Under the pieces are notes generated by a model. The model was not told the DNA's origin and did not search any database. It saw nothing but the letters and a program-made list of their open reading frames with translations. Source: a phage. Taken from it: a DNA stretch of 49,124 nt. The stretch lies in the sequence record PZ715802.1. One strand, given 5' to 3'. Positions 520-49,117 of the stretch are shown here, piece by piece (the first letter of the stretch is position 1; every line of letters starts with the position of its first letter). The position numbers and the translations under genes are program-made.

Positions 520-1087
520 AATTATCATCCTCAATGCGCCTCCTGGTGCTGGCAAAGACACTATCGGCAAGATGATTTCTTTCTATTCACCTGGTGAGCA
601 ATGCCGAATTATTAGCTTTAAAGAACCAATGTTTGATATTGCATTGGCTATCCTTGGCAAAGAGAACTATCAGCGCTTCATGCTGGCTTATGATGACAGA
701 GAGCAGAAAGAAAGGCCGCAAACATTCCTGATGGGTATGTCACCGCGTGAGTTCATGATCTGGATTAGCGAGGATGTAATCAAACCTAAATTCGGCAAGG
801 ATTATTTCGGCGTAAGGTTTAACCAGAAAGTAAAAGAGTGTGATGCTCCTGTTGTTTGCACTGATGGTGGTTTTCCAGATGAAATTATCGCTCTAATCAA
901 TGCTGGTAATGAGGTGAAGCTATGTCGCTTGCATCGCGACGGGTTCACGTTTGCAGGTGATAGCCGCAACTACATTCGAATCAATCCATATTACCAGAAA
1001 AACGGATATAGTGAGCACGATTACTTATTAACCAATGAAAAGCCGATGATTACAGTTAGCGAAATCATTCGCGATCACCTTAAATAG
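512..1087 (+). CDS. P-loop nucleotide kinase (dNMP kinase / polynucleotide kinase-like)
   Basis: N-terminal Walker A LNAPPGAGKDT resembling the start of T4-type dNMP kinases; stop codon is the TAG of the downstream box element. Confidence 0.55.
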   Translation: MAKIIILNAPPGAGKDTIGKMISFYSPGEQCRIISFKEPMFDIALAILGKENYQRFMLAYDDREQKERPQTFLMGMSPREFMIWISEDVIKPKFGKDYFGVRFNQKVKECDAPVVCTDGGFPDEIIALINAGNEVKLCRLHRDGFTFAGDSRNYIRINPYYQKNGYSEHDYLLTNEKPMITVSEIIRDHLK

Positions 1088-1127
1088 CACGAATTGCTAA
1101 AACTTGCGCAAGGCCATTTGTTATAGT
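1085..1127 (+). promoter_or_regulatory. composite box element: TAGCAcgaatTGCTA palindrome, 22 nt with hairpin aggcca/tggcct, TATAGT
   Basis: one of 17 copies; palindrome 1085-1099, -10-like hexamer 1122-1127, about 40 nt upstream of ATG 1168. Confidence 0.6.
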
Positions 1128-1167
1128 GGCCTTATTCAATAGAAGCAACCAATCATAGGAATAAACG

Positions 1168-1365
1168 ATGAAAATTAAATGCACCAAATCAAACACCATG
1201 AATCTGACAGTTGGCGCGATTTACCATATGGAGGAAGGTGTAAACGGGTTTAGCCCAACTGTAACGCATGAATACGGCGGTCACTTCTTCTTAAACGGTA
1301 AAGACGGATTATCTGTAAACGTTGGTTCTTTCGTACTTGCAGAATTTGAGATCGTGGAGGAATAA
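1168..1365 (+). CDS. hypothetical protein
   Basis: ORF track; AGGAA RBS; follows box element. Confidence 0.5.
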   Translation: MKIKCTKSNTMNLTVGAIYHMEEGVNGFSPTVTHEYGGHFFLNGKDGLSVNVGSFVLAEFEIVEE

Positions 1366-1367
1366 AA

Positions 1368-1535
1368 ATGTTCTGGATTCATTCGCCGCAAGGGTTGCTT
1401 TATGTGCCTGGCGTTGAATTGGAAGAACGACGCGACGGCGACACGGTAAACATCATAACGAAGGATTCAAAAGGCCATACTCTTAAAACGTATGTTTTTA
1501 ACACTCCGGTTAAGGTCGAAAAAGATGATTAGATT
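1368..1535 (+). CDS. hypothetical small protein (55 aa), not in ORF track
   Basis: ATG at 1368 with GGAGGA RBS at 1354-1359; fills gap between 1365 and 1525; below the track length cutoff. Confidence 0.35.
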
Positions 1536-1707
1536 TATTGGTTTTGTGGCATTGCTTATGTGCGGAATATTGCTTACTGATAATGACACTTGGCAAAGCG
1601 CTGTTGGCGGTTTACTTATTTTTCTTGCAGGTGGCATGGTTGGCAGTGATGACGCAGCAAACAAGAATAAACTTTCCGATCATTTACGCAGAGAGACAAA
1701 ACGATGA
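1525..1707 (+). CDS. small membrane protein
   Basis: internal ATG of track ORF 1492-1707 with AAGG upstream; hydrophobic FIGFVALLMCGILL and LLIFLAGGMVG segments. Confidence 0.4.
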   Translation: MIRFIGFVALLMCGILLTDNDTWQSAVGGLLIFLAGGMVGSDDAANKNKLSDHLRRETKR

Positions 1708-1949
1708 ATAGAAAAATGCTGGTACGCGCATTCGCAAAGATTGCTAAAAGATGGGGAGATTCTAACAAATCACCTTACACGTTTAGCCGCTACGGTTATA
1801 AAAATGCTCGCGCCTGGGGTCGCTGCATTGCGGATAACTACAACGCCGAAATGCTGGAAGATTTCGCAAAGTGGATTGATACGCCTTTGAAGGATTGGTG
1901 TCAATTTGACTATGACTATTTCGCAGAAGAAGAAATTTCTTGTTGGTAA
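1704..1949 (+). CDS. hypothetical protein
   Basis: ORF track; ATGA overlap with upstream stop. Confidence 0.45.
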   Translation: MNRKMLVRAFAKIAKRWGDSNKSPYTFSRYGYKNARAWGRCIADNYNAEMLEDFAKWIDTPLKDWCQFDYDYFAEEEISCW

Positions 1950-1961
1950 GGAGAATAAAAT

Positions 1962-2459
1962 ATGAAAGCTAAAAATGATTTTTATAACTACCTGACAAAA
2001 GGCCGTGACTATACCGTTTTGAATAGCATAGATACTCTTTACCTTGTTGTTGCTGATAATGGCGTTAGAGTTTGGCTTGATAAAACTCTTTTCGAAAGCG
2101 AGCACCTAAGCAACGCAAAGCGGATCGCAGATGAAGCAAGCGCATTAGCAGAGCGTGAACGAATTCGCGATATAGTATCGGAGCAGGTTAGAAATTCGTG
2201 CTTACCTGGTGGCGATATCTTCAAATCAATGCGCGGTGAAATGACGGTTGGAATTCAAGATCGCGTAATTTCAAAGTCAGTTGATTCTGTAATTGAGAAT
2301 GCGCGATTCAATGCGTTGATTAACTCAGAGCATAACGAATACGTCAAAGTATTAGAGCAACTGCGTGAAGTGCTGCGAGTGCCGGAAGGTGAAAATATAG
2401 TGACTCATGCAAAGGTTGTAAGAGCGTTGGCTGATGCGCTGATTGGTCTGCAAAAATAG
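1962..2459 (+). CDS. hypothetical protein
   Basis: ORF track; AAGGAGA RBS; stop codon TAG is part of the box palindrome at 2457. Confidence 0.55.
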   Translation: MKAKNDFYNYLTKGRDYTVLNSIDTLYLVVADNGVRVWLDKTLFESEHLSNAKRIADEASALAERERIRDIVSEQVRNSCLPGGDIFKSMRGEMTVGIQDRVISKSVDSVIENARFNALINSEHNEYVKVLEQLREVLRVPEGENIVTHAKVVRALADALIGLQK

Positions 2460-2499
2460 CACTTTTTGTTAAAACTTCCGCGAGGGCATTTGTTAAAGT
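2457..2499 (+). promoter_or_regulatory. composite box element: TAGCActtttTGTTA, 22 nt, TAAAGT
   Basis: palindrome 2457-2471; hairpin gagggca/tgtcctc flanks the -10-like hexamer 2494-2499; precedes ATG 2533. Confidence 0.6.
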
Positions 2500-2532
2500 G
2501 TCCTCATTGAAGCGAAACACGGAGATTTAAAA

Positions 2533-9938: not shown

Positions 9939-10427
9939 ATGGCTCAGATTTCAGCAAGTTATCATGTTGCAATGGCTCGCGCCTTGCCTGGTCAAGTTTC
10001 CGACACTTCCGCGTATAACATCGACGGAGCTTGTGTTCTTGAGAATGCAGCAGGCAATCAGAATAAGCCTGTTTTTGTTGGTGTGGCGGTCCAGCATGGC
10101 GGCGTTGATGCCATGGGCAATAAGCTGATTAAGCCGATGGAGGCAAGCGGCAAGGCTTACGGCGTTGCTATTCGATCCAACTTCCAGACCACATCTAAAG
10201 ATGGTCGCATGGTTTATGAGGCTGGTAGCGGAATTAACGTAATGACTAAAGGGCGCGTTTGGATGTTATCTGTAGAGTCGGAAGCGCCAGCATTCAAAAC
10301 AGCTATCAAACTTGATGATTCAGGACAGGTTGATTTAACGTCTGGATTAATTGAAACCACTTGGATCGCAACTGGAGACTTTACGGAATTCCAAGGTCTA
10401 AAACTCGTTGAGGTTCAACTGGTATAA
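9939..10427 (+). CDS. structural protein, paralog A of a tandem pair
   Basis: AAGGAGA RBS; shares YNIDG, NV.T.GR.W and C-terminal ..VQL with 10471-10911. Confidence 0.5.
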   Translation: MAQISASYHVAMARALPGQVSDTSAYNIDGACVLENAAGNQNKPVFVGVAVQHGGVDAMGNKLIKPMEASGKAYGVAIRSNFQTTSKDGRMVYEAGSGINVMTKGRVWMLSVESEAPAFKTAIKLDDSGQVDLTSGLIETTWIATGDFTEFQGLKLVEVQLV

Positions 10428-26136: not shown

Positions 26137-26137
26137 A

Positions 26138-26179
26138 TAGCACTTTTTGCTAAAACAGCCATTCGATGCGTGGTATACT
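26138..26179 (+). promoter_or_regulatory. composite box element: TAGCActtttTGCTA, 21 nt, TATACT
   Basis: palindrome 26138-26152; -10-like hexamer in loop of gcgtg/cacgc hairpin. Confidence 0.55.
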
Positions 26180-26211
26180 ACACGCATCAACCAACAAGAG
26201 AGGAAATAAAA

Positions 26212-31165: not shown

Positions 31166-31203
31166 AAATAAAAAACCTGGCACGATGATAAACCATGCCA
31201 GGC
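31166..31203 (-). terminator. hairpin terminator between HTH gene and primase
   Basis: minus-strand stem cctggca/tgccagg followed by TTTTTT. Confidence 0.4.
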
Positions 31204-31211
31204 CGGAATTT

Positions 31212-31820
31212 TTAGCAATCAGTGCTATCGACGGAAATCACAACGCGTTTCTTCTGATTGGCTTCCTTTGCTTTGCGCCGTTCTTCTTTCGCCTTGTCGC
31301 GTTCAGCTTTGCGCCGCGCTTTCTCCTTCTCGCGTTCTTCTGGAGTCATAGACCGTAACGGATCGTAAGGCCGGACAAATCCCCTTGCTTCCGCTTCCTC
31401 TTTGGTTACAAATCGCATTAGCTTTCTGTTGCTGCAACGATTCTCTAATGGCTTGCCGTTATTATCAAATTTGATATCTGGACGGCAATATGAAGCGCGG
31501 AAGCCGTTAAAACCTTTGCGTCGGTAATCTTTCTGGATCAGTTCAGCGCCTTTAGTTGAAATCATGCCGCGCTCTTTCCATCCCCATACTGTTTTAAGGT
31601 TAACGCCAATTTCACGCGCCAGGGCAGCGCAACCGCCGTAAGCGTTGACAACTTCATCAAGCCGCGCTTTTAATCCGGCTCTTACTTCTTCCTTTAATAC
31701 AAGATAACCGCTAACAGGTGCGCGACGTTTACGATCTTTACCACGTCTTACGCCGTTGTTACCATTGATTGTGCGTTTGTCGATTTCGCCAGTTGATGCA
31801 GCAATTTTGATTTCGCTCAT
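31212..31820 (-). CDS. HTH DNA-binding protein (Cro/YdaS-like) with basic C-terminal tail
   Basis: ORF track; helix-turn-helix-like CAALAREIGVNLKTVWGWK; Lys/Arg/Glu-rich C-terminus; weak RBS. Confidence 0.55.
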   Translation of the reverse strand: MSEIKIAASTGEIDKRTINGNNGVRRGKDRKRRAPVSGYLVLKEEVRAGLKARLDEVVNAYGGCAALAREIGVNLKTVWGWKERGMISTKGAELIQKDYRRKGFNGFRASYCRPDIKFDNNGKPLENRCSNRKLMRFVTKEEAEARGFVRPYDPLRSMTPEEREKEKARRKAERDKAKEERRKAKEANQKKRVVISVDSTDC

Positions 31821-31831
31821 ATTTTTATATA

Positions 31832-31873
31832 TAGCACTTTTTGCTAAAAAACTTGATTAAGTTTGTGTATGAT
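31832..31873 (+). promoter_or_regulatory. composite box element: TAGCActtttTGCTA, 21 nt, TATGAT
   Basis: palindrome 31832-31846 upstream of helicase ATG 31909. Confidence 0.55.
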
Positions 31874-31897
31874 ATGCCGCAAATGGCATTTAGTCAA
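31869..31897 (-). promoter_or_regulatory. sigma70-like promoter TTGACT-N17-TATCAT for HTH gene, face-to-face with box element
   Basis: read on minus strand; its -10 (31869-31874) overlaps the + strand -10 (31868-31873). Confidence 0.45.
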
Positions 31898-33884: not shown

Positions 33885-34292
33885 ATGGTTACTGACAAAG
33901 GCGATTATCTGGAGTATTACAACAAATCAGATCCAGACGATAGGAAGGAGGAAGCGCACCAGGTTGATTCTTATTCATGGCTAACATATGAGTTTCCAAT
34001 GTGGCTTGTTTGGCACACTAAAAACGAGGGGAAGAAAACCATAGGCACAGCCGTAAAGGATCAGCAAGCGGGTGTGAAGAAGGGAGTTAGCGACATTCTA
34101 ATCCTGACTGGTTTTATTGGCTGCAAGTATTCATTTATAGCCATTGAGCTTAAACGCGCCAACAAGAAAGGCACGAAGGTAAGCGACGAACAAAAGGAAT
34201 TCTTGCGACGTGTCAGAGAGTGCGGAGGGTTTGCCGCCGTATGCTATGGAGTAGAGCAAGTAAAATTGGCTATCGCAGACGCTACAAAATAG
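33885..34292 (+). CDS. VRR-NUC domain nuclease
   Basis: ORF track; AAGGAG RBS; D..ELK and EQKEFLRRVRECGG motifs; stop codon is TAG of box. Confidence 0.55.
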   Translation: MVTDKGDYLEYYNKSDPDDRKEEAHQVDSYSWLTYEFPMWLVWHTKNEGKKTIGTAVKDQQAGVKKGVSDILILTGFIGCKYSFIAIELKRANKKGTKVSDEQKEFLRRVRECGGFAAVCYGVEQVKLAIADATK

Positions 34293-34332
34293 CACTTTTT
34301 GTTAAAACAGGCGCAACGGAATGCGCCATAAT
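34290..34332 (+). promoter_or_regulatory. composite box element: TAGCActtttTGTTA, 22 nt, CATAAT
   Basis: palindrome 34290-34304; hairpin ggcgca/tgcgcc in spacer. Confidence 0.6.
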
Positions 34333-34363
34333 GCACCCATCAGAACGAAACGGAGAAATCAAA

Positions 34364-35446: not shown

Positions 35447-35677
35447 ATGAGCATTCGATTAGCCGATCACATGAAATGGGATTTATTTGTTGGTATGACA
35501 ATTCGCTTACTTGATAAGCATGGTTATAACGCTGATAAAATGGAGTTGATAAACTGCCTGGATATGACATTTGACGAAATAAAAGTTGCGCCTTTGTACA
35601 TGTGGGAAAGAAAAATTGAGCACGACCTGATACAATACAAACGCAGAGAGGGCGCACGATTTTTCAATGTGAAATAG
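35447..35677 (+). CDS. hypothetical protein
   Basis: ORF track; stop codon is TAG of box. Confidence 0.45.
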   Translation: MSIRLADHMKWDLFVGMTIRLLDKHGYNADKMELINCLDMTFDEIKVAPLYMWERKIEHDLIQYKRREGARFFNVK

Positions 35678-35717
35678 CACTTTTTGTTAAAACCCGCTTC
35701 GGCGGGTTTTGTATTAT
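35675..35717 (+). promoter_or_regulatory. composite box element: TAGCActtttTGTTA, 22 nt, TATTAT
   Basis: palindrome 35675-35689; spacer hairpin cccgc/gcggg followed by TTTT also looks terminator-like. Confidence 0.55.
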
Positions 35718-35747
35718 GTGCTTAACGGAGAACAAGAGGATTCAAAA

Positions 35748-38792: not shown

Positions 38793-38828
38793 TTTGTTTT
38801 CCTTTTGTTGCTACGTTTCGTTAAAGCA

Positions 38829-38871
38829 AATATACCCGATACAAGATCGGGTGTTTTAACAAAAAGTGCTA
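38829..38871 (-). promoter_or_regulatory. composite box element (minus): TAGCActtttTGTTA, 22 nt, TATATT
   Basis: palindrome 38857-38871; spacer hairpin cccgat/atcggg. Confidence 0.55.
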
Positions 38872-39066
38872 TTCAAAGCGCCTGACGTGAATTAGTAGTT
38901 CACCGTCATCATTTGTTAACTGGTGCTCATTATCTTCAAACGCTCGCATATCACTGTAAAGCAACAACATTAGTGCATAGACAAAATCATCATGCGAAAT
39001 TTGCATTGCTGAACTTTCTTTCAAAATAAGATCTATCAAATGCTGGCTTGCTGAATAATTCTTCAT
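38869..39066 (-). CDS. hypothetical protein (overlaps 38990-39382; status uncertain)
   Basis: track ORF; stop codon coincides with TAG of the box, as for several other genes. Confidence 0.3.
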   Translation of the reverse strand: MKNYSASQHLIDLILKESSAMQISHDDFVYALMLLLYSDMRAFEDNEHQLTNDDGELLIHVRRFE

Positions 39067-39382: not shown

Positions 39383-39384
39383 GA

Positions 39385-40965: not shown

Positions 40966-40992
40966 CTAAAAATCTCCTTCTTGTTGCCGCTA

Positions 40993-41035
40993 ATTATAAC
41001 GGCAACATTCTACAGCCTTTTAGCAATTCGTGCTA
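40993..41035 (-). promoter_or_regulatory. composite box element (minus): TAGCAcgaatTGCTA, 22 nt, TATAAT
   Basis: palindrome 41021-41035; -10-like hexamer in loop of gttgccg/cggcaac hairpin. Confidence 0.6.
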
Positions 41036-41281
41036 TTTGATCGGCTCAACCCTGGCTAATAACTTTCCGTCTATAATGCTATGACATTCAAGAGTTTTAG
41101 GATCGAACGCAAGCGAACGATGGAACGTATGACCAATCAGCAAATATGAATGCTTATCCCTGATGCGATAGACCGTTTCACCTTCCTTTAATGACGATAT
41201 CGCACTAAAAACAACCTTGTAACGATATTTTTGCATAGCCTCAGAACGGTGAGGAATGTAATCTTTTTCCGGTAAACTCAT
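41033..41281 (-). CDS. hypothetical protein
   Basis: ORF track; ATGA overlap; stop is TAG of box. Confidence 0.45.
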   Translation of the reverse strand: MSLPEKDYIPHRSEAMQKYRYKVVFSAISSLKEGETVYRIRDKHSYLLIGHTFHRSLAFDPKTLECHSIIDGKLLARVEPIK

Positions 41282-41640
41282 GAGTATTTGGCCTCAAACA
41301 GATAAGCACCGCCAGCGGCTGAAAATCCAACTTCTTCCCGATACAGAGTGAAACGGTCTCCGTTTTCGTCGAAAACATATCCAGCAACAGCACCTAACAC
41401 GCGGCCTTGTTCGATCTGGTAACGCTTATCGGCTTTGAAAGTTTTCTTGATCTGCATGGAGTGGTTTACCCATGTGCATTTAATGGTTTTGGTCTTAACA
41501 TTTCGGAATGTTAATCCGGTTAAGTTGGCGTGAATCCATTTCCCATCTAACTTAACGAAAGTATCATCATTTTCGTCTACCCGCGCTTTGTATAGGCGGT
41601 TATCAGATCCGATAAGTTTGATTGATTTGAATTTAGCCAT
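41278..41640 (-). CDS. hypothetical protein
   Basis: ORF track; AAAGGAGA RBS. Confidence 0.5.
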   Translation of the reverse strand: MAKFKSIKLIGSDNRLYKARVDENDDTFVKLDGKWIHANLTGLTFRNVKTKTIKCTWVNHSMQIKKTFKADKRYQIEQGRVLGAVAGYVFDENGDRFTLYREEVGFSAAGGAYLFEAKYS

Positions 41641-41673
41641 TTGATTTATCTCCTTTTGTTTTCGTTGAAAGCA

Positions 41674-41715
41674 TTATGCCGGATACGTGATCCGGCGTTT
41701 TAACAAAAAGTGCTA
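41674..41715 (-). promoter_or_regulatory. composite box element (minus): TAGCActtttTGTTA, 21 nt, CATAAT
   Basis: palindrome 41701-41715; spacer hairpin gccggatc/gatccggc. Confidence 0.55.
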
Positions 41716-42408
41716 TTTCTGATTTGCCAGGCATACAGCAAGCGCAAAGCCGCGCGGAGTGAGTGAGCGGATCAGCTTTGTTCGCTTAGACTTGCCGCCG
41801 AGCTTTTGCCAGCCTGGATTGTTGTTCCCTGTTGGCAATACTGCGTTTGTATCCGGCATTACAAAGCCGTTACCCGTCCAAAGACAAGTTTTTTTGGTGT
41901 ACGCATCGCGAGCGGGAATGATTTCAGGAAAGTGAGGATGTTTATCATCTTCCGGCAACAGACCTCCAAACGCGCAAGGATGAAAGATAAAATCAGGTTG
42001 CCGCCACATTGACGACAGAACACTAACAGGATTCTCAATCATGTATGGAACGTTAAACCGATCCGCAATATTGGCAGCAATCTTTGCCGTTTCAACCGCC
42101 TTTTTCTGGAAGTCTGGATCACGTTCACGCTTTGCGGCAAAGTGACGCGATCCACTAACAGCTAAATCAGTGCATGGAGGGAATGCAATAATAAAATCTG
42201 GAGTGCCAAAGACGCGCATCATTGCGTTATGCTGGAATGATAATCCGATCCACTCATTCAAATAAACTATGTTGGGATGAGTCACGCGCACTGATTGGTA
42301 ATCACCATGATCAGCACCGTCGAAATTAAAGCACAGCACTTTGTGACCACGTTCAGCCCACGGCAACGCAGCATAACCAGAACCATCAAATAGTGAGAAA
42401 ATAAGCAT
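41713..42408 (-). CDS. compact DNA cytosine-5 methyltransferase-like protein
   Basis: internal ATG of track ORF 41713-42462 with AAAGGA RBS; motif I LFDGSG, motif IV FPPC, motif VI ENP with spacing as in M.HhaI-type enzymes; only about 231 aa. Confidence 0.5.
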   Translation of the reverse strand: MLIFSLFDGSGYAALPWAERGHKVLCFNFDGADHGDYQSVRVTHPNIVYLNEWIGLSFQHNAMMRVFGTPDFIIAFPPCTDLAVSGSRHFAAKRERDPDFQKKAVETAKIAANIADRFNVPYMIENPVSVLSSMWRQPDFIFHPCAFGGLLPEDDKHPHFPEIIPARDAYTKKTCLWTGNGFVMPDTNAVLPTGNNNPGWQKLGGKSKRTKLIRSLTPRGFALAVCLANQK

Positions 42409-42516
42409 GTTTAAATCCTTTCTGTATGACCTTGTAAGGCGTTTTGTTTGTAGGTGTGACAATCGTATTAGTTACGGCCTGAAATCGCGACATAATGCGA
42501 AACAGGCCGCTATTTT

Positions 42517-42594
42517 TTACTTACAGAATGGGCATGTTGTTTTATTCCCGCTTCCGCCGTGTTTTGGACAGCAAATTTTTTCGATAGGTGTCAT
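42517..42594 (-). CDS. Cys-rich mini-protein (25 aa), not in ORF track
   Basis: ATG with GGAG RBS; MTPIEKICCPKHGGSGNKTTCPFCK. Confidence 0.25.
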   Translation of the reverse strand: MTPIEKICCPKHGGSGNKTTCPFCK

Positions 42595-42606
42595 TTTAAA
42601 TACTCC

Positions 42607-42831
42607 TTAGAATGGGAAACAACGCTTGCAAGATGGATCGAAGTTACAACCGCAATCATTGATTATTGCGTTAGGATCAGCAAGCATCACGCTACTTTCT
42701 TGATCCATATCCATAGCGCCTAATGCGTCATCAAGCGTTATTTCAAGATAGGCAACTTTAAGCGCCCATTCCTTGTTGAGTCCAGCCGCATCCGCTTCAT
42801 GTAGGCGAGCAAAGAAAGCATCTTGAACCAT
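42607..42831 (-). CDS. hypothetical protein with C-terminal Cys cluster
   Basis: track ORF 42607-42849 begins with TTG; first ATG at 42831. Confidence 0.4.
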   Translation of the reverse strand: MVQDAFFARLHEADAAGLNKEWALKVAYLEITLDDALGAMDMDQESSVMLADPNAIINDCGCNFDPSCKRCFPF

Positions 42832-42832
42832 A

Positions 42833-43054
42833 TCAACCCCACTTCTCAATAAACATGCTCATTTCGTCAATCATCGCGTAAGCATCGCTTTCAGTCATGC
42901 GACGGATTCTTCCGCCTGGGTGTTCGCCAACAGCGTAACCAGTTTTTACGCGGGTAATCGTTAACTGATGGAATCCAGAGTCGCGATCCATTTTCAAAAC
43001 TACTTTCCCGTGAGCTTTGACAATGTTCATGATGGATTCAGTTTTCAGTTTCAT
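42833..43054 (-). CDS. hypothetical protein
   Basis: ORF track; GGAGA RBS. Confidence 0.45.
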   Translation of the reverse strand: MKLKTESIMNIVKAHGKVVLKMDRDSGFHQLTITRVKTGYAVGEHPGGRIRRMTESDAYAMIDEMSMFIEKWG

Positions 43055-43085
43055 TTTTGATTCTCCATTTTGTTTATGTGAAAGT

Positions 43086-43128
43086 ATGATACCAATCAGA
43101 GCGTTATCGTTTTTAGCAATTCGTGCTA
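43086..43128 (-). promoter_or_regulatory. composite box element (minus): TAGCAcgaatTGCTA, 22 nt, TATCAT
   Basis: palindrome 43114-43128. Confidence 0.55.
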
Positions 43129-43280
43129 TTTACGGCGATAAACGGATATCCTGTTAAATCTGCATTTCTATAACGTGCAGACCTAACCCAACAGCCGCCT
43201 TTGCTCATAATTAAAGCGTTTTTATGGCGAATATTCACGCGGTAAATTCTTCCGGTTTTTATGTTTTTGAAGTAGGTCAT
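43113..43280 (-). CDS. hypothetical small protein (55 aa), not in ORF track
   Basis: ATGA overlap with stop of 43277-43510; reads through the box and stops within it. Confidence 0.3.
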   Translation of the reverse strand: MTYFKNIKTGRIYRVNIRHKNALIMSKGGCWVRSARYRNADLTGYPFIAVNSTNC

Positions 43281-43510
43281 AATTTAACCTCATGATACTC
43301 TATAAACTCTTGCACATATGCGCATTCGCGCGGCGACTCCTGGCCTTTTATCACCTCACAGCCACCATTAAACAGATAGCAGTGCTGGCAAAGGTTGCCA
43401 CCTGCGTTTTCCTCAGCGATCTGAATTCCGGTACACAAACCGCCACCAAACCTATGAGGAAAATCGTAAGCATGGCAGCGGCACGTTGCTTGATTCCGCT
43501 TACGTTTCAT
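43277..43510 (-). CDS. Cys-rich hypothetical protein
   Basis: ORF track; eight Cys residues. Confidence 0.45.
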   Translation of the reverse strand: MKRKRNQATCRCHAYDFPHRFGGGLCTGIQIAEENAGGNLCQHCYLFNGGCEVIKGQESPRECAYVQEFIEYHEVKL

Positions 43511-43791
43511 TAGATGTTCTCGCTAATAAACTGGATAACCTGGCGAAGATGTTTTTCATCTTTAATTAATGCTGGCAATTCTTCCATAACTTCTTTTTTA
43601 AGATAAATGTTTGCATTCCATGTGAATGAGCCATCACCATTTACGCGGTAAGAGCAAAGCCATTCGCAATCATTATCAGATTCCCAAATGCACAGCGTTT
43701 CAAATTCTTCAAACTTGTTGTAACCCGTTTCAATGCTTAACTCAATGCCACGTTTGCCAGCGAAGTTAGTAGTTGTTTTTGATACCATCAT
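43510..43791 (-). CDS. hypothetical protein
   Basis: ORF track; GGAGA RBS. Confidence 0.45.
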   Translation of the reverse strand: MMVSKTTTNFAGKRGIELSIETGYNKFEEFETLCIWESDNDCEWLCSYRVNGDGSFTWNANIYLKKEVMEELPALIKDEKHLRQVIQFISENI

Positions 43792-43823
43792 TTTAAAATT
43801 CTCCGGTTCGTTTCGATGAATGC

Positions 43824-43866
43824 ATTATGCCAAAACAAACCGGATCGCTTTTAACAAAAAGTGCTA
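43824..43866 (-). promoter_or_regulatory. composite box element (minus): TAGCActtttTGTTA, 22 nt, CATAAT
   Basis: palindrome 43852-43866. Confidence 0.55.
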
Positions 43867-43968
43867 TTTAATTAAAATACTAATACCTTTTCGCACGCTT
43901 TCCGTCGCCTCCGTAATGGTCATTAGCAACAGCAAGAATCCAAGCGTTAGGAATAAAAAATAGCTTCA

Positions 43969-44163
43969 TTAATCACTCTCCATGACAATTACAGGCTCCA
44001 GGCGCTCAAGCACCACTTTGAAATCGGAGTAAAAAGTGGGGCGACATTTTGTTAATTCCTCATATGTATCAGTTGCCAGGCAAGCGCGATCACCTTCATA
44101 GCACACAACTCGCTTACCATTTGCGCGACTGATTGCAACGACGCGATAAGTATTATTGATCAT
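43969..44163 (-). CDS. hypothetical protein
   Basis: ORF track; start overlaps upstream stop. Confidence 0.4.
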   Translation of the reverse strand: MINNTYRVVAISRANGKRVVCYEGDRACLATDTYEELTKCRPTFYSDFKVVLERLEPVIVMESD

Positions 44164-44396
44164 TTCATCACCTCAATTGAATAAATACTTTCAACGCCTG
44201 GCGCGTATAACCGATCTCCATCTTCAGTTATGCAAAGGCAAAGTGCAAGGCCGCGATTGTCTAAAATATGCAAGTCATTTTGTCTATCCATCAAAATTTC
44301 ATATTCGCGATCTTCATCAAATCGCCAAACGCTTAACATGCACTTTCCAGATGATTTAACTTTTACTTTCTTTCCGGCGAAATTTAAACGACTCAT
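44160..44396 (-). CDS. hypothetical protein
   Basis: ORF track; ATGA overlaps at both ends. Confidence 0.45.
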   Translation of the reverse strand: MSRLNFAGKKVKVKSSGKCMLSVWRFDEDREYEILMDRQNDLHILDNRGLALCLCITEDGDRLYAPGVESIYSIEVMK

Positions 44397-44611
44397 TGCG
44401 CCACCTCCACAGTTTCAAATACGGTATTGAATGCCAGAAGTTTAAATTTCTTGCCAGGCTCAACCACTGCGATATTCCAGGTAATGCCGCCGTGATATGC
44501 AACCATATCATCAATATCAACAGTAACCTCAGTACCTTTTTTGAACAATCCTTTTTCGTGGCTCGCATCGCGTACAGTAACCACAGTTTCGAATTGAGTT
44601 TGAATTTCCAT
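44393..44611 (-). CDS. hypothetical protein
   Basis: ORF track; AGGAGA RBS. Confidence 0.45.
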   Translation of the reverse strand: MEIQTQFETVVTVRDASHEKGLFKKGTEVTVDIDDMVAYHGGITWNIAVVEPGKKFKLLAFNTVFETVEVAQ

Positions 44612-44642
44612 CGTTAATCTCCTGATTGGTTTCGATGGGGTA

Positions 44643-44685
44643 ACTATATCAAGATACCCCGATCCGGTTTTAACAAAAAATGCTA
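44643..44685 (-). promoter_or_regulatory. composite box element (minus): TAGCAtttttTGTTA, 22 nt, TATAGT
   Basis: palindrome 44671-44685. Confidence 0.55.
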
Positions 44686-44686
44686 T

Positions 44687-45121
44687 TTACAGCCATTCGC
44701 CGGAAACAATGAAATCAGTGAAATCGTCATGATCCAAAATGCTGTGATAGCCAGTGCAATAATCATTTTTAACCATGTTACCACGCAAACGCACATAATC
44801 AGCCTTTCGATCCGTAATCCAACGAATAAAGCGAGCGTTACGTTGTGGTATCGTTCCGGCGTAAGCCTCTTTGAATCCAATGTGTGCGATGAATGCCACA
44901 AAGCGGATTTGCAAGCCTGGATTGTCTTTCTTTGCCTCGTTAACCAGGTCGCGGAAGTTTTCACGCGTTGGCTTGACCGGAACCAATTCGCCTAACTCGA
45001 TCATGCGGTTGAAGTCTGAAACACTGGAAGATGATTCCATAAACAGCCCATCGCTACCAAACATCACAACGCCGCTTTCGATGAAGTAAGTGTGTCCGTT
45101 GTATTTGTTGGTGTATTTCAT
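44687..45121 (-). CDS. hypothetical protein
   Basis: internal ATG of track ORF 44687-45157 with GAGGA RBS; first gene after the minus-strand box at 45153-45195. Confidence 0.5.
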   Translation of the reverse strand: MKYTNKYNGHTYFIESGVVMFGSDGLFMESSSSVSDFNRMIELGELVPVKPTRENFRDLVNEAKKDNPGLQIRFVAFIAHIGFKEAYAGTIPQRNARFIRWITDRKADYVRLRGNMVKNDYCTGYHSILDHDDFTDFIVSGEWL

Positions 45122-45152
45122 CGTGAATTCCTCATTTCGTTTCGATGAAGTA

Positions 45153-45195
45153 ATCATAGCAATTCGCGTCTGATTGGTTTTAACAAAAAGTGCTA
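45153..45195 (-). promoter_or_regulatory. composite box element (minus): TAGCActtttTGTTA, 22 nt, TATGAT
   Basis: palindrome 45181-45195; first promoter of the minus-strand block. Confidence 0.55.
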
Positions 45196-45205
45196 TTCAT
45201 GCAAT

Positions 45206-45233
45206 AGACCGATTGGTCTAGACCGTTTGGTCT
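45206..45233. promoter_or_regulatory. operator-like tandem 14-bp palindromic repeats AGACCGATTGGTCT / AGACCGTTTGGTCT
   Basis: two adjacent copies differing at one base; includes perfect 10-bp palindrome GGTCTAGACC. Confidence 0.45.
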
Positions 45234-45269
45234 AATGAACGCATCGTTTTGTGTATCGAACGCATTCAT

Positions 45270-45297
45270 GATCCTGTTACGTGATCGTTATATGATC
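45270..45297. repeat. cluster of three GATC sites within 28 bp
   Basis: GATC at 45270, 45283, 45294 inside a non-coding region; the phage encodes a Dam-type methyltransferase. Confidence 0.4.
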
Positions 45298-45513
45298 AGA
45301 TGATGATTGATGTGTGAGATTTTGTGATTGAAATTGATTTGATTTGATTAGATTTGAGTAGTGAGTGAGTAGAAATAATCACACCTTGCCGATCAGTGAA
45401 AACTTTTCCCGCAAAACATCACTCCATGCTCCGCGCGTTTCGTTTTGTTCCTCGTTGTTTTCCGCCAGACCTTCCGCAGTTTAGCGCAACGTTACACAAC
45501 ACGTATAACAACA

Positions 45514-45570
45514 AAATATCTATATAATACATTGAAAAGTAAGATAATTATTATTATATATCTATATTGT
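45514..45570 (+). repeat. AT-rich repeat copy B
   Basis: matches copy A at 24742-24799. Confidence 0.6.
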
Positions 45571-45784
45571 TATATAACTTGTTTTGCTTGTTTCTTGTGA
45601 TATTGATACCCATTTGCGGATTGATAGAGTATAAAATTATAAGATAGGTGCTCTTATTTATTATGGGTGATGCTGATTTTTTGCGAAATAGTGTAACGAT
45701 TTAGAACACCGTTGATTTGAAAGGATAAATTTTCAAATCCTGTTATATTGCGTGATGTTTTTGTTGCCTAATCAAAAATAACAC

Positions 45785-45812
45785 TTGACGCATAAGCCAG
45801 GTTTGCTAAGAT
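45785..45812 (+). promoter_or_regulatory. sigma70-like promoter TTGACG-N16-TAAGAT
   Basis: hexamers at 45785-45790 and 45807-45812, about 35 nt upstream of ATG 45847. Confidence 0.45.
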
Positions 45813-45846
45813 TTCTGCATCGAGCAACAACGGAGGATAACCAATC

Positions 45847-46134
45847 ATGGTAAGGGGCAAAATCGTAAAGCGTGACCTATCCATAGTTGATGCAACGCCA
45901 GAAGATGCAACCAAAGATATCATGCGCCTAATGTACATAGCGCGGATAATTGAGGCGGCAAAACCAAACAGGCTGTATTACATCGACGTTAAGGCATCCG
46001 GTCGAGATGTTAACTCATTGCGCCAGGCAATAAACACGATTGCGAAAGAGGATCGCAGAACCATTAAAACAATAACCACTGATAACGGCTATATCGGCTT
46101 TGTTATCATCGACGTTAAAGAAGCGTTTGTGTAA
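45847..46134 (+). CDS. hypothetical protein
   Basis: ORF track; GGAGGA RBS. Confidence 0.5.
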   Translation: MVRGKIVKRDLSIVDATPEDATKDIMRLMYIARIIEAAKPNRLYYIDVKASGRDVNSLRQAINTIAKEDRRTIKTITTDNGYIGFVIIDVKEAFV

Positions 46135-46145
46135 AGAGGTGAATC

Positions 46146-46589
46146 ATGGAACAAATGACAAGTAAAGAGTTTTGCGATAAATTGCGCGAAGCTGCAAGAG
46201 CCGCTGCAACAGGTGAAGTGATCAAGTTGCCAGTTGCCTATATCACAATGCACGTTCAGGCAGAGGACGCAAAGAAACTAAATTCATCATACATCCGCAC
46301 GATCATGAATCGCGTACCGGAAGTAAAAGAGGTTGGATCTGTAAGTGTCAAGAAAAAGACAAGTGATGACGGCGCGGAGTATTACGAGATCGCAATCAAC
46401 CGCGACACAAAACGCCGCATAGTGACAACTAATGACCTTCCGGCAATCAAAGAGCATGAGCGCGAAAAGCTGGTTGAAAAGATTATGCGCATATCGCCAG
46501 ACTTCTCACACCTGGACGATGAAAAGGCACTTGTTGCAATGCGAGCGGTTGCCACGTTCAAAGATCTGATTAAGGAGATCTCAAAGTGA
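46146..46589 (+). CDS. hypothetical protein
   Basis: ORF track; AGAGGTG RBS. Confidence 0.5.
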   Translation: MEQMTSKEFCDKLREAARAAATGEVIKLPVAYITMHVQAEDAKKLNSSYIRTIMNRVPEVKEVGSVSVKKKTSDDGAEYYEIAINRDTKRRIVTTNDLPAIKEHEREKLVEKIMRISPDFSHLDDEKALVAMRAVATFKDLIKEISK

Positions 46590-46822
46590 AAGCATTCGCC
46601 TTTGTCGCTGCAATGTGGTGTGTCGTTATTGATAGTCCTGGCGTGGCGCTGGTTGTTCTTGGCTTGATATTGTTGGGGGCGTTTGATGAATAAGAAACTT
46701 TTAGATCATGCCGTGGTGTTCTTTATCGCTGCTGCTGGATTTTCGCTGTTGTCAATTGCTTTTTCAATCCTTGCTTTTGCTGTGTCAATGCTGAAATGAC
46801 GGATTACATCCTGATTGGTAAA

Positions 46823-46865
46823 TAGCACTTTTTGTTAAAACTCGATTGGGGTAGTTTGGCATAAT
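46823..46865 (+). promoter_or_regulatory. composite box element: TAGCActtttTGTTA, 22 nt, CATAAT
   Basis: palindrome 46823-46837; spacer hairpin ggggta/tacccc. Confidence 0.6.
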
Positions 46866-46897
46866 TACCCCATCGAAACGAAACGAGGAAAACACAA

Positions 46898-47056
46898 TGA
46901 CTACATTAATCACCTGGGAACACGAAGCAAGCCAGCCAGTAACCCGCGAGTTTGAAACTCTTAGCCAGGCTTATTTGCTGGCGGCGAATGGCGGTTATTA
47001 CAAGGCTCAAGTCATTGATGAAATGGGGGTGATTGTTTATGAGTTTAAAGCGTGAT
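46898..47056 (+). CDS. hypothetical small protein (52 aa), not in ORF track
   Basis: ATG 46898 with ACGAGGAAA RBS immediately downstream of box. Confidence 0.35.
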
Positions 47057-47239
47057 GTAGCCTACCAGAGTGCATACGGTACGCGCCAATACAAATGGGA
47101 CGGCTTGCACGTTTGGACGCGCGGATTCCCTGGCGAAATCTGGCGGCTGGCGGCTGGCTGGCCTCAGCCTCAGATGTCAAAGCGCGATCTTGAATATTAT
47201 GTGAACAAAGGCGAATTTAAGGAGTGGGATAATGTTTGA
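47039..47239 (+). CDS. hypothetical protein
   Basis: first ATG of track ORF 47033-47239, which begins with TTG. Confidence 0.4.
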   Translation: MSLKRDVAYQSAYGTRQYKWDGLHVWTRGFPGEIWRLAAGWPQPQMSKRDLEYYVNKGEFKEWDNV

Positions 47240-47489
47240 ACTGAAACGCGTAACTGTTGAGATCCTGAATGATGGCTCTTACGATGGAATGAAACACTTA
47301 ACCTTCCCGATCCGCATTGAGAATTGCATTGATTACGGTATTGAAGTTGGCATGGTTGACGTTCCTCTTGATGCACTTATCGCGGCTGGCTATGACAAAG
47401 AGAAAGGCCAATGCGCCGATATACCGGATAGCTATGAAAGCGACACACATTTTCCGTTCACCTATGGCGAATGCCGGATTGTTGATTGA
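47232..47489 (+). CDS. hypothetical protein
   Basis: ORF track; AAGGAG RBS. Confidence 0.5.
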   Translation: MFELKRVTVEILNDGSYDGMKHLTFPIRIENCIDYGIEVGMVDVPLDALIAAGYDKEKGQCADIPDSYESDTHFPFTYGECRIVD

Positions 47490-47563
47490 GGTTATAAAAT
47501 GAGCAGTTGGCACAATGAGCACGTAATGCAATTCTACCGCCACAGAATAAAGAAAATGATCAA

Positions 47564-47606
47564 TAGCACGAATTGCTAAAACAGAATCCTGGGGTTGCGG
47601 TATAGT
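47564..47606 (+). promoter_or_regulatory. composite box element: TAGCAcgaatTGCTA, 22 nt, TATAGT
   Basis: palindrome 47564-47578; spacer hairpin ggggtt/aacccc. Confidence 0.6.
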
Positions 47607-47638
47607 AACCCCACACCAAACGAAAGAAGGAAATCAAA

Positions 47639-47962
47639 ATGGAATTAGCACGTAACGCAATTTATGGCTTACACCTCAAAGGCGGTAAAGGTTCAACCTA
47701 TGTTCACCTTTTTCATGTGAATGAGCGCAACCAGGTTGATATTGCGATGTATACAGATCAGTTTCTGGTAAAAGGTGAAATGGGCGATAGGTTTAATCCG
47801 CAATTCGTCGAACAAGATCCAACGTATAGCCATGACCATTGGGTTTGTGATGATTACTATAATTTCATCATGGTTGATAGTCACGTTACGGACACGCGGA
47901 AAATAACAGTTAGCGACTATAAGCGCATGACTCGAAAAGTATTGAAGCATAAAGCGCAATAG
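47639..47962 (+). CDS. hypothetical protein
   Basis: ORF track; AAGGAA RBS; stop is TAG of the next box. Confidence 0.5.
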   Translation: MELARNAIYGLHLKGGKGSTYVHLFHVNERNQVDIAMYTDQFLVKGEMGDRFNPQFVEQDPTYSHDHWVCDDYYNFIMVDSHVTDTRKITVSDYKRMTRKVLKHKAQ

Positions 47963-48002
47963 CACAAAATGTTAAGCGGTCATGTGTCCTGATGGGTATA
48001 AT
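47960..48002 (+). promoter_or_regulatory. composite box element, variant: TAGCAcaaaaTGTTA, 22 nt, TATAAT
   Basis: palindrome 47960-47974; spacer hairpin gcggtcat/atgaccgc. Confidence 0.5.
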
Positions 48003-48034
48003 GACCGCATCAACCAACCAAAGGAGAAGTAAAA

Positions 48035-48142
48035 ATGTCTAAAGAGTCTATCAAGCAGTTTCTGAAATACGGTTCTATGATTGTGCTCGCTACCGTTGTG
48101 CTGGCTGGCATCGCGTATAGCATTATTGAGTTTGCGGGGTAA
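48035..48142 (+). CDS. small membrane peptide (35 aa), not in ORF track
   Basis: ATG with AAAGGAGAAG RBS; hydrophobic MIVLATVVLAGIAYSII. Confidence 0.3.
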   Translation: MSKESIKQFLKYGSMIVLATVVLAGIAYSIIEFAG

Positions 48143-48145
48143 TTG

Positions 48146-48709
48146 ATGTTTACGATCAACTTGTGGGGAAGGGATTATGTTAATCCCTATGTTGCGACAA
48201 AACAGCGTTTCGTTATTTTCGACCTAGACGGCACATTGTCAAATGGTGAGCACCGCTTGCACCTGTTGCCAACGGTTGATTTGCATCTTACTGAAAGCTG
48301 GAGTGAGTTTAATCGCGCCGCAAAGGATGATTCACCATTCAGCAATAACATTTCCGTGTGCAACGCCATGTTTGACGCCGGATACCTGGTTATCATCCTA
48401 ACAGGACGTAGTGATGAAGTTGAAGCAGAAACGCGAGCCTGGTTAGCTGAAAACGGCGTTTCTTTCGATTGGCTAATTATGCGCCGCGCGGAGGACAACC
48501 GGAAAGATACAGTAATCAAAGAGGAAGTTTTACGGACTATCGGACTAGATCGCATTGTCGCATGTTGGGATGACTCACCAAACGTTATTGCACACCTGCG
48601 CGGCCTGGGCTTGACTGTTTACCAGGTAATTGACTACGGCGAGCAGTTACACGATCACTTAAAATCTCACGGCGTGGAGGAATTGAGCGATGACAGCAAA
48701 GATAATTGA
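48146..48709 (+). CDS. HAD-superfamily phosphatase
   Basis: track ORF 48143-48709 begins with TTG; ATG at 48146; DxDGT motif in FVIFDLDGTL. Confidence 0.55.
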   Translation: MFTINLWGRDYVNPYVATKQRFVIFDLDGTLSNGEHRLHLLPTVDLHLTESWSEFNRAAKDDSPFSNNISVCNAMFDAGYLVIILTGRSDEVEAETRAWLAENGVSFDWLIMRRAEDNRKDTVIKEEVLRTIGLDRIVACWDDSPNVIAHLRGLGLTVYQVIDYGEQLHDHLKSHGVEELSDDSKDN

Positions 48710-48878
48710 AGATCGGCATGGTGATAACGTGCTTATTTACATCGAAGGGAAATCGGTGTGGATTGACTGCAAATACGAGGATGACACACATTTGCAGTTT
48801 CGCGGAATCTTTGACAAGAAAGGCGCGTTAGAGTTAGCAGAACACATCAAGCGGCTTGCGGAAGAATTACCGGAATAG
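48690..48878 (+). CDS. hypothetical protein
   Basis: ORF track; overlaps end of upstream gene. Confidence 0.4.
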   Translation: MTAKIIEDRHGDNVLIYIEGKSVWIDCKYEDDTHLQFRGIFDKKGALELAEHIKRLAEELPE

Positions 48879-49074
48879 AGTATTTATTATGTTGACTTTT
48901 ATCTTGATCGCTATCGTTTTAATTCTGTATGTTTGCGGCGCTTTCCTGATGCGAGCGCTACTAAAAGAGGCTGACGCTGATGACAAGGATAGTTGGAAGC
49001 CGATTGTTTTGTGGCCTGGCTATATCATCGTGCCAATTTACGAGCTAATCCGCGATGGTGAGTTTAAATGGTAA
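48856..49074 (+). CDS. small membrane protein (start uncertain, 48856 or 48890)
   Basis: ORF track; hydrophobic MLTFILIAIVLILYVCGAFLM. Confidence 0.4.
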   Translation: MRKNYRNRVFIMLTFILIAIVLILYVCGAFLMRALLKEADADDKDSWKPIVLWPGYIIVPIYELIRDGEFKW

Positions 49075-49117
49075 ATAGCACTTTTTGCTAAAACTTGCTA
49101 AGGCACATTTGATAAAG
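49075..49117 (+). promoter_or_regulatory. composite box element: TAGCActtttTGCTA, 22 nt, TAAAGT; no downstream gene inside the window
   Basis: palindrome 49075-49089; spacer hairpin aggcaca/tgtgcct; would drive the gene at 29 if the ends are joined. Confidence 0.55.

Follow-up and report, generated by a model that had tools for sequence, protein, structure and literature searches.

Intergenic repeats of a Tlsvirus genome match the host marbox and suggest class II activator-dependent promoters interleaved with RNA hairpins

The phage genome of sequence record PZ715802.1 carries, in front of its non-structural genes, a repeated intergenic element that matches the marbox, the DNA site of the host activators MarA, SoxS and Rob, which suggests that proteins of this family bind it, as we predict here. 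The box stands at a fixed distance from a -10 hexamer, and for these units a promoter architecture of the class II, activator-dependent type is well supported; host activators of the MarA/SoxS/Rob family probably switch them on. The analysis covers the whole stretch of 49,124 bp, called the window in the following (position 1 is its first letter and all coordinates refer to it), which belongs to Tlsvirus (Drexlerviridae, Tempevirinae) and shows 94-97% identity to phSE-2, Stevie, KMB25 and their relatives. An earlier account made from the letters alone (the sequence-only reading) had described the element as a palindrome TAGCA-N5-TGYTA, a hairpin-forming spacer and a -10-like hexamer.

The motif TAGCA-N5-TGYTA gives 27 strand matches in the window, corresponding to 19 distinct sites, where 0.18 strand matches would be expected (0 of 100 shuffles reached 27). 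Aligned in their orientation, the copies read aaATAGCAC-(TTT/GAA/AAA/TGA)-TTG(C/T)TAAAAC, followed by a variable stretch and the -10-like hexamer; another 30 nt or so lead to a Shine-Dalgarno sequence and the start codon. The hexamer lies 21-22 bp 3' of the palindrome in 18 copies, each of them directed at a non-structural gene. The seventeen copies counted in the sequence-only reading are thus part of a real and enriched repeat, but complete promoter-like units number 18, since an eighteenth (49075-49124) crosses the window end. All coordinates given there were correct, including those of the subtype with N5 = CGAAT (1085, 41021, 43114 and 47564), and its two main subtypes were found again. 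Its statement that no copy lies within the structural operon was inexact, because copies are present at 10937-10956 (-) and 20821-20840 (+).

The element itself is the same as a repeat already published for phage TLS, in which 18 intergenic direct repeats of 21 nt, aaATAGCACnnnTTGnTAAAA, were described (German et al. 2024, PMC11447400). The TLS repeats run in the same direction as transcription, about 76 nt 5' of start codons (PMC11447400), and the window copies likewise face genes, at the same distance of about 76 nt to start codons. Repeats of 21 nt were noted for T1, Rtp and Rogue1 as well, a stoperator, an enhancer site or an UP element were offered as candidate roles, and the function of the repeats was named among the open questions of the field (PMC11447400). 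A fixed -10 hexamer, the identity with the marbox, a +1 position and hairpin statistics are absent from that work (PMC11447400). What is new here is the assignment to class II marbox promoters, with a fixed -10 and +1 and with interleaved RNA hairpins and terminators. Our literature search, whose coverage was incomplete, found no published link between the marbox, MarA, SoxS or Rob and T1-like phages, and no transcription-start or RNA sequencing data on any Drexlerviridae phage.

The marbox is the site of a MarA, SoxS or Rob monomer and has the published form 5'-GCAHWWWWTGYYAAA-3' (PMC6900184). The commonest phage copy, GCACTTTTTGTTAAA, fits this form at 15 of 15 positions. Perfect matches to GCAHWWWWTGYYAAA occur 13 times in the window compared with 0.05 times in shuffles, and 15-mers with at most one mismatch 22 times compared with 0.9. 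Martin and colleagues reportedly gave in 1999 a 20-mer form of the marbox, AYnGCACnnWnnRYYAAAYn, and 19 window copies are at most one mismatch away from this form. Read from the genome of E. coli MG1655, the host boxes are ACAGCACTGAATGTCAAAAC for micF, ATGGCACGAAAGACCAAACA for fumC and ATGCCACGTTTTGCTAAATC, the reverse complement of GATTTAGCAAAACGTGGCAT, for mar. Among 2 million random 20-mers, a weight matrix derived from 63 phage copies alone ranked the boxes of micF and mar at about 5e-7, with that of fumC at 6e-5.

The sequence-only reading had taken the palindrome for the binding site of a dimeric factor; it is better understood as an asymmetric monomer site matching the host marbox. Information content is highest at G4, C5 and A6 and again at T12 and G13, on either side of a variable A/T centre (TTT, GAA, AAA or TGA). 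C and T share position 14 about equally, whereas G4, which mirrors it, never varies; C7 and T11, a conserved pair, are not complementary, and nothing at the 5' side mirrors the AAAAC conserved at the 3' flank. The conserved positions of the box do not show the two-fold symmetry of a Cro/cI-type dimer operator, and this asymmetry (G4 against C/T14, C7/T11) fits the binding of a monomer. The apparent symmetry (GCA...TGY, T2/A16, T15) is nearly all contained in the marbox consensus. In two places the box doubles as coding sequence: at 31209-31228 it encodes the C-terminus ...D-S-T-D-C-stop of a regulator, a tail kept in the Tlsvirus homologues, and at 43110-43129 the end S-T-N-C-stop of the gene 43113-43280.

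Of the 17 units wholly inside the window, 15 have 18 bp between the end of the box and the hexamer and the other two have 17 bp; the spacing of 21-22 bp from palindrome to hexamer claimed earlier was accordingly found as 22 bp in 15 and 21 bp in two of the 17. When copies from the window, T1, Rtp and Klebsiella phage KP36 were pooled (n = 74), the best hexamer lay exactly 18 bp after the box in 52 and at 17 bp in 6 copies, and a hexamer with at least four of six matches, A2 and T6 among them, was present at 17 or 18 bp in 63 of the 74 copies compared with 3.6% of random positions. The micF promoter of MG1655 has the same layout, with ACAGCACTGAATGTCAAAAC, 18 nt and TAGAAT, and an annotated RNA start 7 nt past the hexamer; the gap between box and hexamer at fumC of the same strain is 18-19 nt. 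The box faces forward, with its GCAC end distal and the -10 and the gene downstream, in all 18 window units and in 63 of the 74 copies in the four phages. The hexamer consensus is TATaaT, a G at -14 and an A at hexamer+7 are conserved, and many copies have TGn. The predicted +1 is an A in 15 of 17 window units, the discriminator is C-rich and 6 nt long, and the leader to the start codon measures 21-34 nt.

The six bases 17 bp 5' of the hexamer read AAAACn and match TTGACA at two or three of six positions, which leaves no recognisable -35. An ordinary -35 reading was rejected, since TTGYTA, at 21-22 bp from the hexamer, is too far away and no hexamer stands at 17 bp. The box of a class II marbox promoter faces forward and lies over the -35 (PMC6900184, PMC12052159), and such sites are centred near -41, without a recognisable -35 and with an average of 1.9 matches in it (PMC10268841). 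Cryo-electron microscopy of Rob and RamA on micF shows a monomer that touches the alpha C-terminal domain and sigma-70 region 4 and occludes the -35 (PMC9178005, PMC8811837). The activator-dependent geometry proposed in the sequence-only reading, in which a protein site centred near -41/-42 stands in for the -35, is therefore supported. Canonical -35/-10 pairs are depleted in 31100-49124 (28, compared with 41.1 +/- 6.3 in shuffles). The fixed spacing and orientation, G-14, the +1 A and the scarcity of canonical promoters together lend strong support, at the level of sequence, to a promoter reading; consensus, orientation, spacing, the lack of a -35 and the sigma-70-type -10 are each as a class II marbox promoter has them. 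The conservation that the sequence-only reading had proposed to look for in T1-like genomes was found: copies of the architecture number 22 in T1, 16 each in Rtp and Klebsiella phage KP36, 12 in Vc1 and 10 in Erwinia phage Snitter.

The 18 units of the window are given below; their +1 positions are predicted from sequence, and hairpins are given, where available, with their free energy (dG) and z-score (z).

1084..1134, + strand: marbox ATAGCACGAATTGCTAAAAC at 1084-1103, 18-bp spacer, hexamer TATAGT at 1122-1127, +1 A at 1134, ATG at 1168; the TAG at 1085-1087 is the stop of gene 512-1087; hairpin with dG -12.9 and z -3.8.
2456..2506, + strand: marbox at 2456-2475, hexamer TAAAGT at 2494-2499, +1 A at 2506, ATG at 2533; hairpin with dG -14.2 and z -4.3.
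26137..26186, + strand: marbox at 26137-26156, 17-bp spacer, hexamer TATACT at 26174-26179, +1 A at 26186, ATG at 26212; leads into the Erf and SSB genes; an 8-bp stem flanks the hexamer, dG -14.2.
31831..31880, + strand: marbox at 31831-31850, 17-bp spacer, hexamer TATGAT at 31868-31873, ATG of the helicase gene at 31909; compare TLS promoter P57 (PMC11447400 Table S1).
34289..34339, + strand: marbox at 34289-34308, hexamer CATAAT at 34327-34332, +1 A at 34339, ATG at 34364; hairpin within the spacer.
35674..35724, + strand: marbox at 35674-35693, hexamer TATTAT at 35712-35717, ATG at 35748; the spacer contains a terminator-like hairpin, CCCGCTTCGGCGGGTTTT, and the TLS counterpart of the unit is annotated as terminator T62 (PMC11447400).
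46822..46872, + strand: marbox at 46822-46841, hexamer CATAAT at 46860-46865, +1 A at 46872, ATG at 46897; hairpin with dG -18.7 and z -5.2.
47563..47613, + strand: marbox at 47563-47582, hexamer TATAGT at 47601-47606, +1 A at 47613, ATG at 47639.
47959..48009, + strand: marbox ATAGCACAAAATGTTAAGCG at 47959-47978, degenerate at its 3' end, hexamer TATAAT at 47997-48002, ATG at 48035.
49075..49124, + strand: cut by the window end; marbox at 49075-49094, hexamer TAAAGT at 49113-49118, ATG at 29.
45146..45196, - strand: marbox at 45196-45177, hexamer TATGAT at 45158-45153, +1 A at 45146, ATG at 45121; tandem palindromes upstream at 45205-45234.
44636..44686, - strand: marbox at 44686-44667, hexamer TATAGT at 44648-44643, +1 A at 44636, ATG at 44611.
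43817..43867, - strand: marbox at 43867-43848, hexamer CATAAT at 43829-43824, ATG at 43791; no significant hairpin.
43079..43129, - strand: marbox at 43129-43110, hexamer TATCAT at 43091-43086, ATG at 43054.
41666..41716, - strand: marbox at 41716-41697, hexamer CATAAT at 41678-41673, ATG at 41640; hairpin within the spacer.
40986..41036, - strand: marbox at 41036-41017, hexamer TATAAT at 40998-40993, ATG of a DUF3987 helicase-like gene at 40965; a 7-bp stem flanks the hexamer, dG -16.7 and z -6.7.
38822..38872, - strand: marbox at 38872-38853, hexamer TATATT at 38834-38829, ATG at 38792; the spacer holds a terminator-like hairpin, ACCCGATCTTGTATCGGGT.
31174..31228, - strand: marbox at 31228-31209, intrinsic-terminator hairpin at 31204-31174 followed by T6, hexamer TATCAT at 31190-31185 in its loop, ATG of the primase gene at 31153.

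The unit at 49075-49124 runs over the window end into positions 1-31, where its hairpin closes and is followed by the Shine-Dalgarno sequence aaggag and the ATG at 29. Since the two parts rejoin in this way, the window is a complete genome, circularly permuted, whose ends fall within an intergenic cassette. The predicted leaders share a CA-rich motif, A-TCGAAACGAAAC-(N)-GGAG, for example at 46872-46896, 44636-44612 and 41666-41641, and likewise in T1, Rtp and KP36; a conserved leader that is unstructured and enhances translation is a possible reading. Good canonical intergenic sigma-70 pairs in 31100-49124 number only three, at 31897-31869 (-), 45785-45812 (+) and 36165-36193 (+), and these are candidates for activator-independent units of immediate-early or constitutive type.

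A second layer of the element consists of inverted repeats. We folded the spacer together with the hexamer and the next 12 nt (35-36 nt) of 63 copies and obtained a mean minimum free energy of -10.4 kcal/mol, compared with -4.7 for segment shuffles that kept the hexamer and -6.1 for chimeras between copies; z was below -2 in 41 of the 63. Inverted repeats whose sequence varies in a compensatory manner from copy to copy, as had been claimed, are supported. Two classes of hairpin are present. In the first class the spacer contains the entire stem-loop, whose end falls on the hexamer's TA, and several such stem-loops have been annotated as rho-independent terminators in T1 and TLS; in the second class the stem arms flank the hexamer, which lies in the loop, and the 3' arm is the discriminator. 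The earlier placement of the hexamer in the loop therefore holds for the second class but not for the first.

The sense RNA folds more stably than the antisense RNA in 48 copies, compared with 12 in which the reverse is the case (p = 7.5e-7), and 62 of 545 hairpin pairs are G-U pairs. Both observations point to a role in RNA read from upstream rather than to a DNA cruciform, a reading that they disfavour. The unit between the regulator and primase genes is orthologous in the window, T1, Rtp, KP36 and Snitter; the stem sequences of the five are unrelated, and in all five phages z ranges from -3.8 to -5.6, a U6 tail is present and the loop contains a -10-like hexamer that is correctly spaced from the box. 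G+C-rich stem-loops with a U tract are found at 31204-31174 (T6), 35688-35711 and 38852-34, and some of the hairpins appear to be intrinsic terminators with the -10 in their loop. After most of the stems whose arms flank the hexamer comes AUCGAAAC and no U tract; stems without such a tract presumably act in attenuation, 3'-end protection or processing. A transcript begun at the +1 of the hexamer in the unit between the regulator and primase genes is missing the 5' arm, and no terminator can form in it, so that the cassette would insulate the upstream unit while it starts the next one. The idea of a coupled cassette, with an RNA hairpin for transcripts from upstream and a promoter for the next gene, is in this way supported, and the TAG of the palindrome was found, as described before, as stop codon of the genes ending at 1087, 2459, 34292 and 35677 (+) and at 38869, 41033 and 41713 (-). 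Rfam and tRNA scans of the window gave no matches.

Two atypical copies lie in the structural region:

10937-10956, - strand: marbox ATAGCATTTTTTGTTAAACG, antisense, between gene 10408-10911 and the major head gene, without a good hexamer.
20821-20840, + strand: marbox ATAGCACAAAAGGTTAAAAG, 2 nt before the ATG at 20843 of a J-like tail gene of 1258 amino acids, with no usable -10 at 17 or 18 nt.

The first points antisense into gene 10408-10911, just upstream of a terminator and the major head gene, and its position and antisense orientation are kept in T1 (~15069), Vc1 (~5713) and Snitter (~33973). The placement of the second and its CAAAAGG centre recur in TLS (DR8) and in Erwinia phage Snitter (~23792, -). 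Conservation of two copies without a -10 suggests that the bound protein may have a second role, and the copy at 10937-10956 could be an antisense promoter or a roadblock.

Taken together, each copy would be a compact boundary between transcription units in which two devices are overlaid. The first would be a class II activator-dependent sigma-70 promoter whose asymmetric 20-bp marbox, at about -50 to -31 and facing forward, replaces the -35. The box would be followed by an 18-bp, rarely 17-bp, spacer, a -10 usually with G-14, the discriminator, the +1 A and a CA-rich leader with its Shine-Dalgarno sequence. On the model of micF and fumC, the box would bind one monomer of the MarA/SoxS/Rob family, which would contact the alpha C-terminal domain and sigma-70 region 4 and so recruit the host RNA polymerase; Rob is the candidate for constitutive action, and MarA, SoxS and RamA would act when induced. 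The second device would be an RNA hairpin on the sense strand of transcripts arriving from the upstream gene, which often stops on a TAG or TAA at the edge of the box. Located in the spacer or across the -10, this hairpin would terminate, attenuate or stabilise at its 3' end the upstream transcript, and transcripts from the unit's own +1 would not be affected. The identity of the activator, the dependence of transcription on it, the start positions and the function of the hairpins are what we infer from these features.

[quoted passage not shown] They differ in that 18-22 near-consensus copies are present in a virulent phage of 49 kb, whereas the host sites are degenerate and scattered, and in that the phage copies sit on the upstream stop codon and hold an RNA hairpin in spacer or discriminator; binding of the host protein is predicted. 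At lambda PRM a cI dimer bound to OR2 activates in class II manner through contact with sigma region 4. An activator site near -42 and a weak or absent -35 are common to PRM and the units described here; the regulator of lambda is phage-encoded, whereas the present site is asymmetric and fits a host monomer site. In T4 middle promoters, which depend on sigma appropriation mediated by AsiA, the MotA box has its centre at about -30, with 11-13 bp between it and the -10. They resemble the window units in a conserved box that replaces the -35, a good (extended) -10 and many copies in a virulent phage; a middle promoter of the MotA type was rejected here, as the box ends 18 bp from the hexamer and the Pfam scans described below gave no match to the MotA or AsiA family. 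The PeSL cassettes of T4-type phages, reportedly described by Arbiol and colleagues in 2010, are said to place an early promoter and a terminator stem-loop between small non-essential early genes. They are alike in being small, repeated cassettes of promoter and stem-loop between small genes; they have ordinary strong sigma-70 promoters with a -35 and the hairpin beside them, whereas here the marbox takes the place of the -35 and the hairpin is interleaved with the -10. The stoperators of mycobacteriophage L5 are likewise numerous asymmetric intergenic sites oriented with transcription, but they bind a phage repressor and block elongation in the lysogen, whereas the present phage is virulent and its sites are locked to -10 hexamers.

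The search for a phage-encoded AraC-type protein gave no candidate. In tblastn, MarA, SoxS and the N-terminal domain of Rob had no homologue in the window, with a best E-value of 0.17, and a Pfam scan of 44 small non-structural open reading frames and 6 larger ones found no HTH_18/AraC-type domain and, among the same 50 proteins, no match to the MotA or AsiA family. Marbox units stand before the small genes in both arms of the genome and also before those for recombination, primase and helicase. The lack of a phage AraC-family protein and the location of the units at the genes expressed first and at those of replication and recombination indicate that the activator is most likely a host protein already present, which is also the simplest reading since no phage protein exists when infection starts. 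Rob is the constitutive member of the trio and has the highest DNA affinity (PMC10268841). CRP, FNR, Fis, IHF, LexA and DeoR were considered as binders, and none fits by its consensus site.

The only clear DNA-binding protein of the phage is a regulator of 202 amino acids (31212-31820) of the P22_Cro/YdaS families, and a PHROGs search of 10 proteins returned 'transcriptional regulator' for this one only. Its AlphaFold model (predicted local distance difference test score, pLDDT, 83.7) shows a single Cro-like helix-turn-helix (HTH) domain with extra N- and C-terminal parts, and Foldseek against the PDB gave Cro proteins with weak E-values of about 0.03 and no double HTH of the AraC type. A second protein, of 371 amino acids (36229-37344), has a weak N-terminal match to the homeodomain-like HTH_23 at residues 11-39 (E = 0.0025). 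In relatives this protein is annotated as a DNA repair exonuclease or phosphoesterase, and the record of KP36 notes a Sigma70_r4_2 hit for the homologue. The sequence-only reading had named both as candidate binders; they have a single HTH and are not AraC-like, and they stand as possible rival or additional binders whose link to the site is their co-occurrence with it in all genomes examined. The regulator gene has a canonical promoter of sigma-70 type at 31897-31869 (-), TTGACT-17-TATCAT. At 31868-31898 its -10 TATCAT (-) and the -10 TATGAT (+) of the helicase unit overlap face to face, and the two divergent promoters probably compete for RNA polymerase. The Cro-like regulator is present in 825 Drexlerviridae records, and the motif turned up in each of the genomes retrieved, those of 'Vibrio' phage Vc1 and Erwinia phage Snitter among them. 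Because both are universal in the genomes examined, the phyletic pattern does not separate a host factor from a phage factor.

An unlikely alternative, which accepts the same promoters, is therefore that they are bound by a phage-encoded protein, either the Cro-like regulator or the HTH protein at 36229-37344. A dimer on the TAGCA-N5-TGCTA core near -42 would then either activate, as lambda cI does at PRM, or shut off early promoters, as Cro does; a mixed form, which we include in the same estimate, would have host activation of the Rob family first and a phage protein later competing for the same site. The centres of the half-sites TAGCA and TGCTA are 10 bp from each other, a spacing suited to an HTH dimer, A3 is conserved more strongly than a marbox needs, and the regulator has the Cro-like fold and is universal in the family; its gene has a promoter of canonical type (TTGACT-17-TATCAT) overlapping a marbox unit's -10; the weak HTH_23 match (E = 0.0025) speaks for the second protein. 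Against this, G4 never varies, but the C14 that symmetry calls for is present in no more than about half of the copies, neither C7/T11 nor the 3' AAAAC is mirrored, and the match to the marbox together with the micF spacing would have to be a coincidence at the level of about 1e-6. The units also drive what are presumably the earliest genes at both arms, before a phage protein exists, and a better candidate for a dimer operator is available elsewhere. Two overlapping tandem palindromes of 16 bp, TAGACCGATTGGTCTA and TAGACCGTTTGGTCTA (TAGACC-N4-GGTCTA), lie at 45205-45234 and nowhere else in the window, 10-37 bp upstream of the leftward unit 45146..45196 and at the edge of a non-coding, AT-rich stretch of 650 nt (45197-45846) between divergent early operons; they are candidates for an operator of the Cro-like regulator or for part of a replication origin.

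Factor-independent extended -10 promoters, in which the A/T-rich box would offer an UP-element-like contact to the alpha C-terminal domain, would account for the conserved G-14, for the many copies with TGn and for a box at about -50 to -31 with an A/T-rich centre, and the UP-element idea has been proposed for TLS (PMC11447400). An UP element is an A/T tract at -40 to -60 which the alpha C-terminal domain touches and in which particular G/C positions are not required. This reading of the units appears improbable: conservation is highest at G4, C5, A6, T12 and G13 and not in an A/T tract, and the centre varies, which is not the pattern of an UP element; such elements are not near-identical over 20 bp and across genera, and the box fits a specific protein site. 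Least probable of all is that the element is not primarily a promoter but a terminator, roadblock or 'stoperator'-like silencer of read-through (as also proposed in PMC11447400), or a PeSL-like recombination cassette that shuffles small early genes: the hairpins are frequent and some are bona fide terminators, copies stand at boundaries between small accessory genes, and those at 10937-10956 and 20821-20840 lack a -10, but the fixed distance of 17/18 bp, G-14, the +1 A and the constant leader length are properties of promoters, which recombination, possibly a side effect of the repeats, leaves unexplained.

Several points weigh against activation of class II marbox promoters by host proteins. 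The main biological objection is that Rob, under standard growth, is for the most part sequestered as inactive aggregates (PMC10268841). Unless induced, MarA and SoxS are scarce too, and yet laboratory strains support good growth of T1-like phages. Our literature search, itself incomplete, found no report of rob, marA or soxS mutants that affect T1-like phages. The motif is present in Vc1, a phage recorded as infecting Vibrio cholerae, and the universal Cro-like regulator with its own canonical promoter leaves room for a phage-encoded binder. Within the element, A3 and T11 are conserved beyond what the marbox consensus requires, both copies of the structural region lack a -10 and fall outside the promoter model, and many hairpins have no U tract, so that a terminator role is not general.

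The marbox reading addresses how T1-like phages are transcribed despite almost no recognisable sigma-70 promoters. We consider it possible, though doubtful, that these phages have hard-wired nearly their whole early and replication programme to MarA/SoxS/Rob(/RamA), by which the host regulates its responses to antibiotics and stress, through about 20 near-consensus class II marboxes per genome. If this were true, infection would be tuned to the efflux and stress state of the host. TLS-like phages such as U136B use TolC, and tolC belongs to the mar/sox/rob regulon (PMC11762307), so that TolC-dependent phages of this kind would share a regulon with the gene of their own receptor. Replicating phage DNA would titrate the regulators away from host resistance genes, and the Cro-like protein might later compete at the pseudo-symmetric core and end the early phase. 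Terminator loops that enclose a -10 hexamer would offer a general means of insulating transcription units within very short spacers, and the units would provide a set of very compact natural cassettes of activator-dependent promoter and terminator. A widespread family of virulent enterobacterial phages, with members on Escherichia, Salmonella, Citrobacter, Klebsiella and Erwinia, would then depend on, or gain from, the regulators of multidrug resistance in their hosts, which would bear on phage therapy and on the trade-offs between resistance to phages and resistance to antibiotics.

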